A stretch of 63,618 nucleotides of DNA, the filler included, from Globobulimina sp. (Eukaryota): assembly GCA_003354225.1 (NCBI GenBank). It is 24 parts of 24 records of this genome, joined end to end, with 100 filler letters (N's around TTAATTAATTAA, not from the genome) between each part and the next. Parts side by side here need not be neighbours in the genome. Positions count along the whole stretch, not along the records: positions 31,868 to 34,422 come from PIVH01006006.1; 23 more parts are not named here. One strand, 5' to 3'. A model generated the notes under the pieces. It did no database searches, was not told the DNA's origin, and saw only the letters and a program-made list of their open reading frames with translations. Position 1 is the stretch's first letter. Each line of letters opens with the position of its first letter. Shown here in pieces: positions 30,129 through 35,515 of the stretch. The position numbers and the translations under genes were made by a program.

Positions 30129-31767
30129 ATGTTTTATTTGATTGCAGTTGCAGCGATTTGCTTTATTGTGCATATAGACGTAGTGAAAGGACAAGGCTAT
30201 GCAGGTAGAAGGTATCGAACAAAACGTCCAAAAAAGAGTACACATACTGATTCCGCACCATTTTACAGTGTAATTAAAAAAAACGCACAGTATAATGCTG
30301 CAAATGAAGGGATCTCAATACAACAAGAATCATTAAATACAGCGTTATTAAAATGGAATTTATTTAACAACGGATATTATACATTTCAAATTGCGCAAAC
30401 ATGCAATTGTCCCATTTGCGATATACAATCAATGAACATCTATATTGAAAACAATATCATTGTAAATTCAGAATATACCGAAGGAAATGAGTATGCATTA
30501 AATAATTTTTGTGGGAATGATGATATTTTATACAATGAAAGACTCTCATTTTCAAGAATAACCATATACGATTTATTTAATATAATTCAAACCTCCATCG
30601 CAGATAATGTCAATATTGGTGTCATATATCACGAAGACATTGGTATTCCATTATCAATCTCCATACAACCTCTCGACAATGAAATATTAAATACATTTAT
30701 CAGCATTAATTGCATTGCATTCAATGCCTCATATCCTTCCATTGCCGCTACGGACATACGAGGACGGAAAAGATATAACGTATTTGAAACCGTATCAATT
30801 ACAGATTTTAACAGCAATGATGCCTATTCCTGTCCAAACATAAGAGGTTTGCACAATGCATTATGTATATCGACTGTTTCTCTTTCAACTGTACGTTGAC
30901 GATAATTTAATTAGTTCCAGCGCAATGTATCGGTGTCAATGACCATTTCAAGTGTTCCAGAATAACGGATGGCTGCAACAGTTAAGTTAAATACATATAT
31001 TACGATATGACAAATGACACAAACTTCAAATATGCAGCATGTTCATGCGATGCTGCAGGCGATGCTATGCATTGTACCAAAAGAGTCTGTGTTGACAGAG
31101 AAACAGACATAAAATGTATTGACTGTGCATCGAACACACAATGGACAGATTGTGGTGGCGATGCGGATTGTATTCCATATTGTAATTCCATGGATAACTT
31201 TTGCGGACATGCTCCATTCTCCGCTGTTTTAAATTGTAACCCGCGATGTCAATGTCCTGCAGATAGGCCTCGATGGAATGGCGATGAATGTATATCGTTG
31301 ACTGAGTGTGACATACAAAGGCATATTACTGACGGTGGGCATGCTGATGGATATGGAGGGAATATTAACGCTGCAGCTGCCAGTATATGCATTCCACACT
31401 GTAACGTGTACACAGATGGCTGTGTAGAGTGTGAGTGTTCCGATGATACTCCCAATGGACAGATAATCGGTGACTGTGTCCGTACAAATGATACCTGTTC
31501 AGCTGAGGATAGACAATGTGAGTTATGCGAAGATCCACATACTATGATTTATACACAATGTGGCGCTGCGGATGTAAGCTGTGGTGATAGGAACACATTT
31601 GTTGAAGTTACACAATGCACAGAAAAGTGTGAGTGTAAGCCGGAATTTCCAATTTACGACGCAAACAATAAAAAATGTATCGCCGTTGACGAATGTCCTG
31701 ATATCACCGAGACAGAGACCACTGATGTTGGCCCCTTTGGGCGTTGTATAGTTAAACCATTATTTTT
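30129..31767 (+). CDS. Secreted protein: DUF6174-like domain plus pacifastin-like and TIL Cys-rich modules; introns about 30847-30914 and 30981-31037; 3'-partial
   Basis: KW...YYTF...TCNC...TIYDLF...GIPLSISI (DUF6174-like pattern). Splicing restores DGCNTCSC...CTKRVC. TIL-like module CASNTQWTDCG...C...CQCP...C...EC. Confidence 0.6.
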
Positions 31768-31867: not shown

Positions 31868-34036
31868 ACGTTACATAAATTATGTGCTTCTTTAGGAGAA
31901 GAAATGACTAAAAAAATTGACTTAATAAATAGACACGATTCTATGTGTAAAAATATGTTAGAAAATATGTCCAAATCTGTATTAGAAGGTATATTAAATA
32001 ATATTATTCACTGTATTCAGCAAAAAGTTGTATTTAGCGATGATTTATTAATTTTATCATGGAAACATTGTGAAAATAAAGAAATTGATGTGTTGGAAAG
32101 TAATTTATTTCAGGTGATTATCACAGAATATTTAAAAATTATACAAAATACAGCCAACAAAAAAGATTGGTGCTGGATGAAAAATTATTTAATTGCTTCA
32201 ACTTTATGGTTACGCAAATATAAAAAAACCAATAGCTTATTATTCAAAGAATTGTTAGTTGCCGTTAAAAAAGAATCAGATAAACAATCCAAACAATGCC
32301 TAGTTACAGAAATCCAGCACATGAAAGCCAATGATATTGATTTATGGAATGAGTTGCAATCATTTCAGGTAGAACCGAGGACAAAAAATCAAATTGCCCG
32401 ACAAGACTCTGTCGAAGAAGGTGTCAGCATTACATACACTAAGAAACAGTTAATCGCATATAAAGCCAAAGGGAATTCGTTCGATCCCATTTCGCATAGC
32501 AATATCAAAGAATATTTACCAAATTTAGTATTAAGAGCAAATATTGTGGATGAATTATTTCACAACGATATGCAAAAAATTGTGCATAAAATAATTGAGC
32601 AATATTCAAATGAGGATGAGAAGCAAAATGAATTTATCATGGAATACAAACGTGGCCCACTAAAATTGTGGCAACGCTGTAAAGCAAAAGTTGAAAATGA
32701 TTATGGCTCAGAAGAATATCCGTCAGCCGCACATTTATTAGATATTAATCGCTGCTCAATTACATTTAATACATTATCCGCGATGATGAATGGCATAAAA
32801 GAGTTTGTTACACAGATCAAAGAAGGTAAGACTTGCATTGTTGATATTATTCGATGTAAAAATGGTTTTAATAAACAAGTGTTTAATGATCAAATACCAC
32901 AATATTCTGATATTAAATTTAATGTATTAATTAATACACCGCGGGGAGCAATTATTGGTGAAATACAGTTTTTGTTGAATATTATGCAAAGATATAAAGT
33001 CAAGGCACATTCATTATACTCAATTATTCGAATGGATGAATTTATGCTGAAATATCAAGAAGTTATCCCGGTTTTGATGGATAAACAGAAACGAATTTTG
33101 ATAATGGCAGCGGAAGGAAATAGTAAAGGAATATTAAATTTTATGATTGAACAAAATATCAATGCAAACGAATTATTATTGACATGGAAAACAAATAAAA
33201 ACGTGAATGTTTTGTATCAAATCTGTCGATTTAATCATGCTAAATTATTTAAATTATTGTATAAAATGTGTGATAAGAAAGTATTTGACCAAACATTGCA
33301 GTTAATTCCAGCTGGGACCTCTTTAAATTGTTTCGGTGAAGTTTTAAATGCCAAAAGTTGTGAGATTATAAAATTATTGTTGCAAGAAGAAGATTATAAA
33401 AAAGCATTGTTGAGCTACAAAGACCCCGTTCATAAGAAATCAATGCTTCATTTTGTATTCGAATCGAATAATATATGGTTATTGAAATGGTATATGGATA
33501 ATGTGTGTAATGCCGCCAACATGGATGGTTTATTAATGTTTGAATCAGGCAAACTTGGCTGGCAACCTTTGATGTGGTCGTGTCAAAATGGTGGGACATT
33601 ACAAATTGTGGAATATTTCTTAGCCCGGTTAAAGAAGGAAAATAAACAAGAATTGATTGAGAAAATATTATTTCGTGGCGATAGAACGTACGGTGTATCG
33701 CCTTTGATGCAAGCTTCTGATTTGGGAGACGAAGCAGTGCAAAAAGTAATATTAAGATATTTGGAAACGGATGAAAAGAGAGTTCAATTAATATTTCAGA
33801 AGGATAAAAATAACCAATGGACACCGTTACATGTGACGAAAAAGGTAAATATAGCAAAGAATATATTGGAAAGTATTCCTAATGATCAAGACAAATTAAA
33901 ATTGTTATGGTTAAAAGATAAACGTTGGCAAACACCAGTAACTAAAGCGGAAAGAATGCATGATAGAGCATTGCCAAATTATTTGAGGAAAGTTAGGAAA
34001 GAATTAGAAGACAAGAAAAAACAAACGAAAACATGA
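31868..34036 (+). CDS. RelA/SpoT-like nucleotidyltransferase domain fused to C-terminal ankyrin repeats, 5'-partial
   Basis: About 32640-33030: RGPLK..RCKAK, DINRCSI, RCKNGF, YSDIKFNV, GEIQF, AHSLY. Then ankyrin-like SMLHFV, GWQPLMWS, GVSPLMQA, QWTPLHV, WQTPV. Frame open to the contig start. Confidence 0.75.
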   Translation, partial: TLHKLCASLGEEMTKKIDLINRHDSMCKNMLENMSKSVLEGILNNIIHCIQQKVVFSDDLLILSWKHCENKEIDVLESNLFQVIITEYLKIIQNTANKKDWCWMKNYLIASTLWLRKYKKTNSLLFKELLVAVKKESDKQSKQCLVTEIQHMKANDIDLWNELQSFQVEPRTKNQIARQDSVEEGVSITYTKKQLIAYKAKGNSFDPISHSNIKEYLPNLVLRANIVDELFHNDMQKIVHKIIEQYSNEDEKQNEFIMEYKRGPLKLWQRCKAKVENDYGSEEYPSAAHLLDINRCSITFNTLSAMMNGIKEFVTQIKEGKTCIVDIIRCKNGFNKQVFNDQIPQYSDIKFNVLINTPRGAIIGEIQFLLNIMQRYKVKAHSLYSIIRMDEFMLKYQEVIPVLMDKQKRILIMAAEGNSKGILNFMIEQNINANELLLTWKTNKNVNVLYQICRFNHAKLFKLLYKMCDKKVFDQTLQLIPAGTSLNCFGEVLNAKSCEIIKLLLQEEDYKKALLSYKDPVHKKSMLHFVFESNNIWLLKWYMDNVCNAANMDGLLMFESGKLGWQPLMWSCQNGGTLQIVEYFLARLKKENKQELIEKILFRGDRTYGVSPLMQASDLGDEAVQKVILRYLETDEKRVQLIFQKDKNNQWTPLHVTKKVNIAKNILESIPNDQDKLKLLWLKDKRWQTPVTKAERMHDRALPNYLRKVRKELEDKKKQTKT

Positions 34037-34759
34037 GATATATGTATTATTTTGTTCGCCTTTTTGTTCTACAGTAGAATAGATTTGTGGCTGTAGTGTA
34101 AATAAACTTTCTCGTATACACTTTTTGAAGAAAGAGTCCCTAGCTTAAAATGTTGAAACTAAAGGAAAAGTCATCAGCATCTCCCGTGTGTGCCAGGATA
34201 ATGTACAACATTAAAAAGAAGGCGCTACTGAGTTAAATATATAATACCTTTGTTATGTCAAAAACAATGTTAATTACATCAAGAATTGTGGGAATTTAAA
34301 GTGTGATGAGTCCACATGTATGTGTACGTTTTTTGCAATAAATGAGACAGCCGATATCGATGAAACTCCGCACATATCCGACATCATGGAGGACCATTTA
34401 TGTTTGTCATATTCTGCAAAAGNNNNNNNNNNNNNNNNNNNNNNNNNNNNNNNNNNNNNNNNNNNNTTAATTAATTAANNNNNNNNNNNNNNNNNNNNNN
34501 NNNNNNNNNNNNNNNNNNNNNNTCCTTTAGACGTATTCGGGGGTTTGTTGAACCAAAGACAAGTACAAGGCATTCCTAGTTAAGACCGAGACCCAAAAAA
34601 ACTTTACTAATCGTTGAATCTCAAATACTGAAACACTGGCAATGGGAGGCTTCAATATGCAATTTCCAGCTGCAATTAACTTCGGATTTACGCATCAATT
34701 TCATGTGTTAATAATTTAATTCACCGCTTCATATATCAAGTCAGCGTAAATTAAAGAGA

Positions 34760-35515
34760 ATGAATAAAACATTTTTTGTATCAATATTTCTTGTGCTTTC
34801 AACAATCATTGGTATTGCGTCCATAATCGTAGCAACTCTTGGCACAATTTATTTAAATGGTGATGCATTTTTACAACAATTTACACGAGATGTATCTGCT
34901 CTGACTGTTCCTTATCAAGAACTAAGAGTAGAAACACAGCAAATGTCCGGTGGACTAATGACAACAAGATGGCCCGAAGGAGGTTCAAAATATCGAATGG
35001 TATTTGTTGGTGGATTTGCTGCTGCATCGATCATGATTTGTTGTATTGCAGTTTGTAAGTATTGGTTAATGAGGAATGTATGGAACAGAAACAATGGTGG
35101 TTCTAAACATGTTATTTGGATTTCTGTATTATTTGTTATTGGAGCTATTGGTTTAGTAATAATGGCTTATTGTTATCCTTTTTATGTTCGCATTGCAAAT
35201 ATTGTTGATGTACATATTTTTGCTGCAGTGATTGCTATGATTTCTCTTATTTTAGCACAGTTAATGGATGCATACAATTGGAAGAAGTATGCTGAGCGCA
35301 ACGGATTTGAATATTCAACAGTTTTACATTGCTATTCATTTGGATGTCCAGTACTTTCTGGGTTATGTTTCATTATTTGGGCAGGAATTAATCCGCCGGC
35401 TGAATGGTTGGGTGTTTTGTTCTTAACGTTGGGATTTGTGACGCAAATATTCCATGTAAGGGCAGATCAAGAGATCAAAAGCACTGAAAGCCACAAAATG
35501 CAAGAAATTGTGTAG
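34760..35515 (+). CDS. Multi-pass membrane protein, Frag1/DRAM/Sfk1-like
   Basis: About 6 TM segments with VHIFAA and AEW motifs in the expected helices. Confidence 0.5.
   Translation: MNKTFFVSIFLVLSTIIGIASIIVATLGTIYLNGDAFLQQFTRDVSALTVPYQELRVETQQMSGGLMTTRWPEGGSKYRMVFVGGFAAASIMICCIAVCKYWLMRNVWNRNNGGSKHVIWISVLFVIGAIGLVIMAYCYPFYVRIANIVDVHIFAAVIAMISLILAQLMDAYNWKKYAERNGFEYSTVLHCYSFGCPVLSGLCFIIWAGINPPAEWLGVLFLTLGFVTQIFHVRADQEIKSTESHKMQEIV

Follow-up and report, generated by a model that had tools for sequence, protein, structure and literature searches.

An ankyrin-fused protein of Globobulimina sp. with a RelA/SpoT-type synthetase fold and a conserved, divergent set of putative active-site residues

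INTRODUCTION

RelA/SpoT homologue (RSH) enzymes are at the core of stress signaling in bacteria and plastids and, as toxSAS and CapRel proteins, act in phage defense. The question raised here is whether an enzyme of this kind is encoded in the nuclear genome of a protist, Globobulimina sp. (assembly GCA_003354225.1), and, if so, which reaction it might catalyze. The gene concerned lies at positions 31868 to 34036 of a stretch of joined contigs 63,618 nucleotides long, fillers included (the whole of which is referred to here as the window), and belongs to contig PIVH01006006.1. A first reading of the DNA had led to the proposal (the original prediction) that this gene encodes an RSH synthetase domain preceded by a helical region and followed by ankyrin repeats, and that the product could be a sensor-gated signaling or immunity enzyme. 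Here, the proposal is weighed by means of structural models, profile searches, related proteins, and contigs from other public sequencing runs.

RESULTS AND DISCUSSION

Fold of the central domain

As modeled, the central domain of the encoded protein has the RSH synthetase fold, and solved RSH synthetases are its closest structural matches. For residues 150 to 405, an AlphaFold2 model built from a 40-sequence alignment reached a mean predicted local distance difference test (pLDDT) score of 90.7 and a predicted template modeling (pTM) score of 0.83. It consists of a long helix, strands at residues 246 to 250, 283 to 288, 312 to 320, 337 to 345, and 348 to 358, and a long C-terminal helix. When this model was compared with the PDB using Foldseek, 64 matches were obtained at E ≤ 0.001, and all 24 of the matches shown (ranks 1 to 47) were RSH synthetases, carrying the names RelP, RelQ, SAS, Rel, RelA, SpoT, CapRel, and Tas1. 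The best match was RelP (6ex0_A; E = 3.5e-6), and the best target-normalized template modeling (TM) scores were 0.57 to 0.60. Likewise, 13 matches at E ≤ 0.001 were found among the predicted viral structures of BFVD, 5 of which were named RelA/SpoT, YjbM, or Tas1, including the first-ranked match (E = 3.5e-7). Overall, three structure libraries concurred on the RSH synthetase fold. The original prediction had staked its case on such a structural match, and as far as the fold is concerned, the Foldseek results answer the point in its favor.

Conservation of the predicted active site

A series of short motifs had been read from the middle of the open reading frame (ORF), and all of them were recovered in the order and at the place given (translation of 32639 to 33019: MEYKRGPLKLWQRCKAK...LLDINRCSITF...IIRCKNGF...QYSDIKFNVLI...IGEIQFLL...KAHSLY). 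Residue conservation was counted in 142 aligned domains taken from the family proteins listed. K262, D280, R283, K319, N320, D336, K338, and E353 were present in 142/142 domains, K254 in 141, R258, R317, Y334, and N340 in 140 each, and Q355 in 138, while H369 and Y372 were kept in 133 and 134 domains, respectively. All 13 core residues were retained together in 135 of the 142 domains. These residues are kept without or almost without exception in the 142 domains, so the motifs exceed what would be expected by chance. The predicted catalytic Asp (D280) and Glu-x-Gln (E353 and Q355), which had been described as intact, are indeed so and are conserved family-wide.

The roles of these residues can be proposed by comparison with solved enzymes. 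In Staphylococcus aureus RelP, the adenine is stacked between Arg78 and Arg112, the phosphates are contacted by Lys80, Ser84, Lys88, and Arg91, Mg2+ is bound by Asp107 and Glu174, His190 reaches the ribose, and Tyr151 in the loop between strands 3 and 4 takes part in guanine nucleotide binding (PMC5794853). The equivalent residues given for FaRel2 are R64, K66, S70, K74, R77, D90, R95, Y128, and E145 (PMC11782079). In the model, the secondary-structure elements that carry the core residues of the window protein are those that carry the donor and acceptor residues in FaRel2 and RelP. By this comparison, K254, R258, and K262 would bind the triphosphate of the donor nucleotide, D280 would be the Mg2+-binding Asp, R283 the base-stacking Arg, and E353 the second Mg2+ ligand. 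H369 is located 16 residues past E353, which equals the spacing between Glu174 and His190 of S. aureus RelP. A RXKD motif is described for Rel/SpoT proteins (PMC3153485), and the R317-C-K319-N320 stretch may correspond to it, the resemblance being one of position only.

On the acceptor side of the predicted active site, the family departs from the canonical motif. A Tyr is conserved where the strand 3-4 loop ends (Y334), whereas Asp and Lys, both invariant, stand in place of the Ser and His of GYxSxH, and the loop itself has more residues. The divergence noted in the original prediction for the window protein is a family trait, with YxDxK in place of YxSxH. The positions of all motifs are given in Table 1.

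Individual family members vary at these positions. In a few of them, several core residues have been lost; one such protein, P0109 (K254Q, R258S, R317S, and Y334F), may be an inactive paralogue. Ser, the canonical RSH residue, occurs at position 258 in two family members.

Table 1. Features of the ankyrin-fused gene, in window coordinates
Feature	Position	Strand	Remarks
5'-truncated coding sequence	31868..34036	+	Open from contig edge; stop TGA 34034-34036
Conserved all-helical domain	31868..32362	+	Before catalytic domain
RSH-synthetase-like domain	32399..33103	+	Residues 166-400
K254-x3-R258-x3-K262	32663..32689	+	Loop and helix after strand 1; spacing as in K-x3-S-x3-K of RSHs
D280-I-N-R283	32741..32752	+	Start of strand 2 (residues 283-288)
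R317-C-K319-N320	32852..32863	+	End of strand 3
Y334-S-D336-I-K338-F-N340	32903..32923	+	End of strand 3-4 loop and start of strand 4; in place of GYxSxH
E353-I-Q355 (ExQ motif)	32960..32968	+	Strand 5; paired with EIQ/EVQ of RSHs
H369-S-L-Y372	33008..33019	+	Helix after strand 5
C-terminal ankyrin-repeat region	33110..33973	+	About 6-7 repeats, counted by eye

Domain layout of the protein

The flanking regions agreed with the layout that had been proposed. A separate AlphaFold2 model of the region encoded by 31868 to 32503 (pLDDT, 88.8) was all-alpha up to model residue 165, and this N-terminal helical domain gave no specific match to a known fold. Downstream of the motifs, the ankyrin assignment rests on Ank_2, which was matched in four stretches (E = 9.2e-13; 49 bits versus a cutoff of 27.3), the best of them at residues 515 to 617 (33446 to 33754). 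Ank (22.9 bits; cutoff, 21.1) and Ank_3 (22.9 bits; cutoff, 22.3) also exceeded their curated Pfam cutoffs.

Within the visible 710 amino acids, Pfam returned ankyrin families only, and HD, TGS, ACT, NACHT, and NB-ARC domains were not found. NCBIfam and a sequence search of the PDB (phmmer) with the whole protein likewise gave ankyrin matches or nothing, with no match in the central part. A long RSH of the plastid type was rejected as an identity for the window protein, which has no HD, TGS, or ACT domain in its visible part, as had been stated from the first reading.

Family and taxonomic range

The central domain belongs to a large family. A word-indexed search with residues 1 to 420 returned seven proteins at E ≤ 0.001, all of them long and most with ankyrin domains; one was named MMETSP1385. 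A profile of the central 232 positions (A2) was then searched against 1.84 billion cluster representatives and retrieved 2,411 representatives at E ≤ 0.001, of which 894 were at E ≤ 1e-10 and 305 at E ≤ 1e-30. Twenty of the relatives listed were looked up. Nine of these carried an organism name, and all nine were foraminifera (Nonionella stella, Bolivina argentea, and Elphidium margaritaceum), while the remaining 11 were metagenome or metatranscriptome records. The suggestion that relatives would be found among rhizarians thus fits the named sequences.

Among the family members listed, the domain typically lies about 330 residues from the N terminus and about 240 residues from the C terminus. 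Architecture was surveyed with Pfam (E ≤ 0.001) in 39 long members, chosen by length out of 150 listed. Ankyrin repeats were found in 30 (in 2 of these together with RCC1), a WD40 propeller in 1, and ZZ and C1 plus FYVE domains in 1, while 9 had no match. HD, TGS, ACT, NACHT, and NB-ARC domains were found in none of the 39 long relatives at this threshold.

Scans of viral contigs and of prokaryote genome contigs yielded no relative, a result from short patterns that does not demonstrate absence. In the ESM Atlas, scores were at the level of leads only (0.78 to 0.89); the cluster at rank 9 (0.85) came from phages, and 24% of its members carried PF04607.

Two proteins of one EukProt set (P0003 and P0004) are identical over about 550 residues through the catalytic domain and then diverge, with ankyrin repeats in one and an unrelated C terminus in the other. 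Alternative splicing could be the cause, as could a domain swap in the recent past or a chimera of the transcriptome assembly.

Integrity of the open reading frame

The original prediction described an AT-rich ORF at 31868 to 34036. The open frame and the base composition (GC content of 0.31 across 32001 to 34000) were confirmed, but the gene is truncated at its 5' end by the contig edge, which had been overlooked. The first ATG, at 31904, would give a protein of 710 amino acids (P0001). However, the 12 codons upstream of this ATG already align with relatives; residue 4 of the window protein is aligned to residue 147 of P0003 (34% identity over 109 residues; E = 3e-22). As the frame before the ATG aligns with relatives, the gene is cut at its 5' end, and by comparison with relatives, at least 146 residues are missing. 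The closest relatives have about 150 to 260 extra N-terminal residues. The missing part corresponds to the ankyrin-bearing N termini of relatives, and long relatives typically have ankyrins near the N terminus; by homology, the missing N terminus of the window gene probably carries ankyrin repeats as well.

Contigs from other public sequencing runs (X1, X2, and X6) were compared with the contig of the gene. Run X1 showed zero differences and may be the source sample, and it was therefore not counted as independent. A 2,131-nucleotide contig of X2 covers 32009 to 34139 with 7 differences, and a 1,930-nucleotide contig of X6 covers 32114 to 34043 with 64 differences and without gaps. Shorter contigs of X2 and X6 extend 382 and 498 nucleotides, respectively, past the 5' edge at 31868. 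As the X2 and X6 contigs both run without a gap from the catalytic domain into the ankyrin region, and relatives have the same layout, the join is genuine, and an assembly chimera at this point was rejected.

The X6 differences also bear on selection. Of the 36 differences listed (out of 64), 26 were at third codon positions; 26 were synonymous and 10 nonsynonymous, and none of the 36 touched a conserved residue. This predominance of third-position and synonymous changes indicates that the frame is under purifying selection.

Other contigs of X1 and X2 match the gene at just two short stretches, 32685 to 32704 and 32836 to 32865 (encoding the conserved AKVENDY and IVDIIRCKN), with 134 different letters between both stretches and unlike sequence on either side. 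They look like a paralogue in the same samples.

Predicted activity and alternative explanations

What is established is the fold, how the residues are conserved, the layout of the domains, the family size, and the purifying selection; from here on, we infer catalysis, donor, acceptor, and any regulation. We consider it reasonably probable that the protein is an active RSH-type, Mg2+-dependent pyrophosphokinase, set among protein-binding modules and forming a ppGpp- or ppApp-like product. In this view, a foraminifer-like protist would produce the enzyme as a multidomain protein of the cytosol. K254, R258, and K262 would bind the donor, a nucleoside triphosphate that is probably ATP, and D280 and E353 would carry Mg2+; the beta,gamma-pyrophosphate of the donor would then go to the 3'-OH of an acceptor. 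The acceptor would most likely be a purine nucleotide, stacked on Y334 and with its phosphates held by R317, K319, and K338, and the product would be a putative ppGpp- or ppApp-like nucleotide. The repeat and helical domains would recruit partners and set when and where the enzyme is active. CapRel and fungal NOD-like receptors (NLRs) provide an analogy that makes it plausible for the ankyrins or the helical domain to gate the enzyme.

Several results weigh against this assignment, some of them at the sequence level. The original prediction had suggested a search with PF04607, and the domain was not detected with it: no match was obtained on the window protein at E ≤ 1 (curated cutoff, 27 bits), in 0/40 family members at E ≤ 1, or in 0/12 at E ≤ 5, and a run on 7 members gave one match at E = 0.018, below the cutoff. 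Profile searches of the PDB with A2 and two further family profiles (A3 and A4) returned chance or ankyrin matches only, with one Tas1 row at E = 2.6. Profile-profile comparisons with hhalign were made against Escherichia coli RelA and two reference sets, one consisting of E. coli RelA, SpoT, and 26 RelA-type fragments (A5) and the other of six plasmid-borne small alarmone synthetases (SASs), four long RSHs, RelA, SpoT, and three fragments (A7). The probability was 0.2% for A4 versus E. coli RelA and 0.06% for A4 versus A5, and the 142-sequence profile was not significantly similar to A5 or A7 either (P = 0.42 and 0.38; best score, 13.0). As these reference profiles were thin (15 to 28 sequences) and the comparisons were run without secondary structure, a deeper HHpred run could still succeed. 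The identification as an RSH synthetase is therefore upheld by the fold (PDB and BFVD) and not by PF04607 or the profile-profile comparisons.

A low-stringency hhalign alignment with S. aureus SAS was collinear over 149 columns and paired K254 with K46, R258 with S50, K262 with K54, D280 with D71, Y334 with Y115, D336 with S117, K338 with H119, E353 with E138, and Q355 with Q140; it has no statistical weight and serves as a positional guide only, not as evidence of homology.

Further points against the assignment concern the motifs and the model. The adenine-stacking Arg of strand 1 (present in RelP and FaRel2 and invariant as R44 in A7) is not conserved: position 250 is Arg in 48/142 domains, including the window protein, and Lys in 15/142, and position 252 is Pro in 134/142. 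Arg stands in place of the donor-site Ser and YxDxK in place of YxSxH, and strands 3 and 4 are joined by a longer loop. Foldseek gave moderate TM scores (0.35 to 0.60), and that the core residues line one pocket would follow from the fold match and the modeled secondary structure.

As the donor Ser, the acceptor motif, and the loop are altered, the donor, the acceptor, or the chemistry itself could differ. One alternative is an RSH-like fold with another chemistry, such as nucleoside monophosphate transfer as in other polymerase beta (Pol-beta)-fold enzymes, or transfer to a protein or small-molecule acceptor, with a nonalarmone product. We regard such an enzyme as unlikely, if slightly better placed than the other alternatives.

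An RNA-directed pyrophosphokinase of the kind represented by CapRel, FaRel2, and PhRel2 is about equally improbable. Here, the 3' CCA end of tRNA or other RNA would be pyrophosphorylated, translation would be shut down, and the repeats would serve as trigger sensors of a cell-autonomous defense or death effector. In the tRNA-targeting FaRel2, however, the basic patch at the acceptor site is described as much smaller than that of alarmone synthetases (PMC11782079), whereas R317, K319, and K338 are invariant beside Y334 in the window family, which would favor a phosphorylated nucleotide over tRNA as the acceptor. Furthermore, neither a pseudo-zinc-finger antitoxin domain nor a nucleotide-binding oligomerization domain (NOD) module was seen in the Pfam scans of the window protein and of the 39 long relatives, although no dedicated pseudo-zinc-finger model was searched, and the top structural matches were housekeeping and exported SASs, not toxSASs. 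Finally, a catalytically dead scaffold or nucleotide-binding module in a protein working via its repeats only is very improbable, because the retention of 13 core residues, including both acidic metal ligands, in 135/142 domains with members down to about 30% identity fits an active site rather than a scaffold.

If the pyrophosphokinase assignment holds, a major group of protists would make wide use, in the cytosol, of alarmone-type chemistry or of a new form of it. The domain keeps the RSH fold and the putative metal and phosphate ligands yet escapes RSH profiles, and the family comprises thousands of sequence clusters, with named members that are foraminiferal and a domain that is nearly always found among protein-binding repeats. 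Should the enzymes be active, the family would also provide naturally varied donor and acceptor motifs with which substrate specificity could be tested, and should the repeats gate them, a NOD-less sensor-effector design would exist in eukaryotes. A broader and more speculative idea, which we hold only tentatively, is that foraminifera possess NOD-less, one-chain sensor-effectors in which RSH-fold enzymes are combined with ankyrin, WD40, or RCC1 repeats and respond to a trigger by making a nucleotide messenger or toxin distinct from (p)ppGpp, to which the altered donor and acceptor motifs would point, as a counterpart of CapRel and of the fungal NLRs with a RelA_SpoT domain. If so, protists would possess a second-messenger or immune chemistry that is new.

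Window structure and other ORFs

The window is made up of 24 blocks of 2,554 to 2,557 bases, apparently ordered by size. Between contigs, the spacer consists of 50 N's, the 12-base linker TTAATTAATTAA, and 44 N's; the linker occurs 24 times, with N runs on both sides and a spacing of about 2,655 bases (linkers at 2602, 5259, ... 61009). An extra copy of the same 12-mer, TTAATTAATTAA, is found within a contig (17390 to 17401), where it is probably AT-rich sequence of natural origin. The contig of the gene extends from 31868 to 34422 (2,555 nucleotides). As position 31868 is a contig edge in a joined window, adjacent ORFs are not genomic neighbors, and no gene context can be derived from them. 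A six-frame scan with the hidden Markov model (HMM) of the domain found no second significant copy within the window.

The ORFs on either side, all on other contigs, encode a DUF6174 protein with a hydrophobic N terminus (30129 to 30899; E = 8.5e-13), a cysteine-rich protein that is truncated where its contig ends and has a weak TIL match (31007 to 31767; E = 0.003), and a multipass membrane protein with a weak Frag1/DRAM/Sfk1 match (34760 to 35515; E = 0.0013). Over the last 150 or so bases of the gene's own contig (34276 to 34422), the contig depth in other runs was far greater, at 420 to 505 versus 28 over the gene in X2 and 150 to 268 versus 13.7 in X6. This suggests that the contig tail is a high-copy repeat, at which the assembly may have stopped.

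Comparison with known systems

The window domain shares its fold with the bacterial SASs (RelQ/SAS1, RelP/SAS2, and the exported Streptomyces SAS 8vx3) but has no detectable sequence similarity to them. Bacterial SASs have GRxK with a conserved strand-1 Arg, the donor Ser, and YxSxH, whereas the window family has G-P-x-K without a conserved strand-1 Arg, an Arg in place of the donor Ser, YxDxK, and a longer strand 3-4 loop. In addition, bacterial SASs are stand-alone proteins of about 200 amino acids, while the window domain is eukaryotic and forms part of a long protein that also has a helical domain and ankyrin repeats. CapRel and the toxSASs (FaRel2 and Tas1) differ in other ways. The CapRel type is fused to a C-terminal pseudo-zinc finger, whose YXXY motif blocks the ATP site, in contrast to the ankyrins and helical domain of the window protein, and toxSASs occur in a toxin-antitoxin or secretion context, whereas the window gene is eukaryotic and not part of an operon.

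A eukaryotic parallel in architecture is provided by fungal NLRs with an N-terminal RelA_SpoT effector, which also combine an RSH-type domain with ankyrin or WD40 repeats in one eukaryotic protein and form lineage-expanded families. These are thought to serve immunity or nonself recognition (bioRxiv 10.1101/2024.11.26.625400 and 10.1101/2022.03.16.484565). However, the fungal domains are detected by PF04607 and joined to a central NACHT or NB-ARC module, while PF04607 fails on the window family and no NOD or P-loop domain was seen in the window protein or the 39 long relatives.

The eukaryotic RSHs described in a 2011 survey are plant and algal RSH1-4/CRSH, metazoan Mesh1, and scattered divRel SASs of Dictyostelium, some fungi, and diatoms, which are ascribed to plastid ancestry or gene transfer; outside plastid biology, the survey knows no nuclear RSHs other than Mesh1 and a few stand-alone synthetases (PMC3153485). 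The window domain resembles these in being nuclear encoded and, by its fold, a member of the RSH superfamily. In contrast, the catalogued eukaryotic RSHs are detected by RSH HMMs and are long, hydrolase-only, or stand-alone proteins, whereas the window family goes undetected by the Pfam HMM, its domain is joined to repeats, and with 2,411 cluster representatives it is a far larger family. The main text of a 2020 RSH update mentions neither eukaryotes nor ankyrin (PMC7229694). In the literature searched, which left out most subscription journals, no report was found in which RSH domains are linked to foraminifera or to nonfungal proteins fused to ankyrins; an automatic annotation may exist in domain databases other than Pfam and NCBIfam. 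Overall, on the evidence of sequence comparison and structural models, the fold is a known one and the chemistry probably so, while the sequence family, the host group, and the architecture appear to be new to the literature searched.

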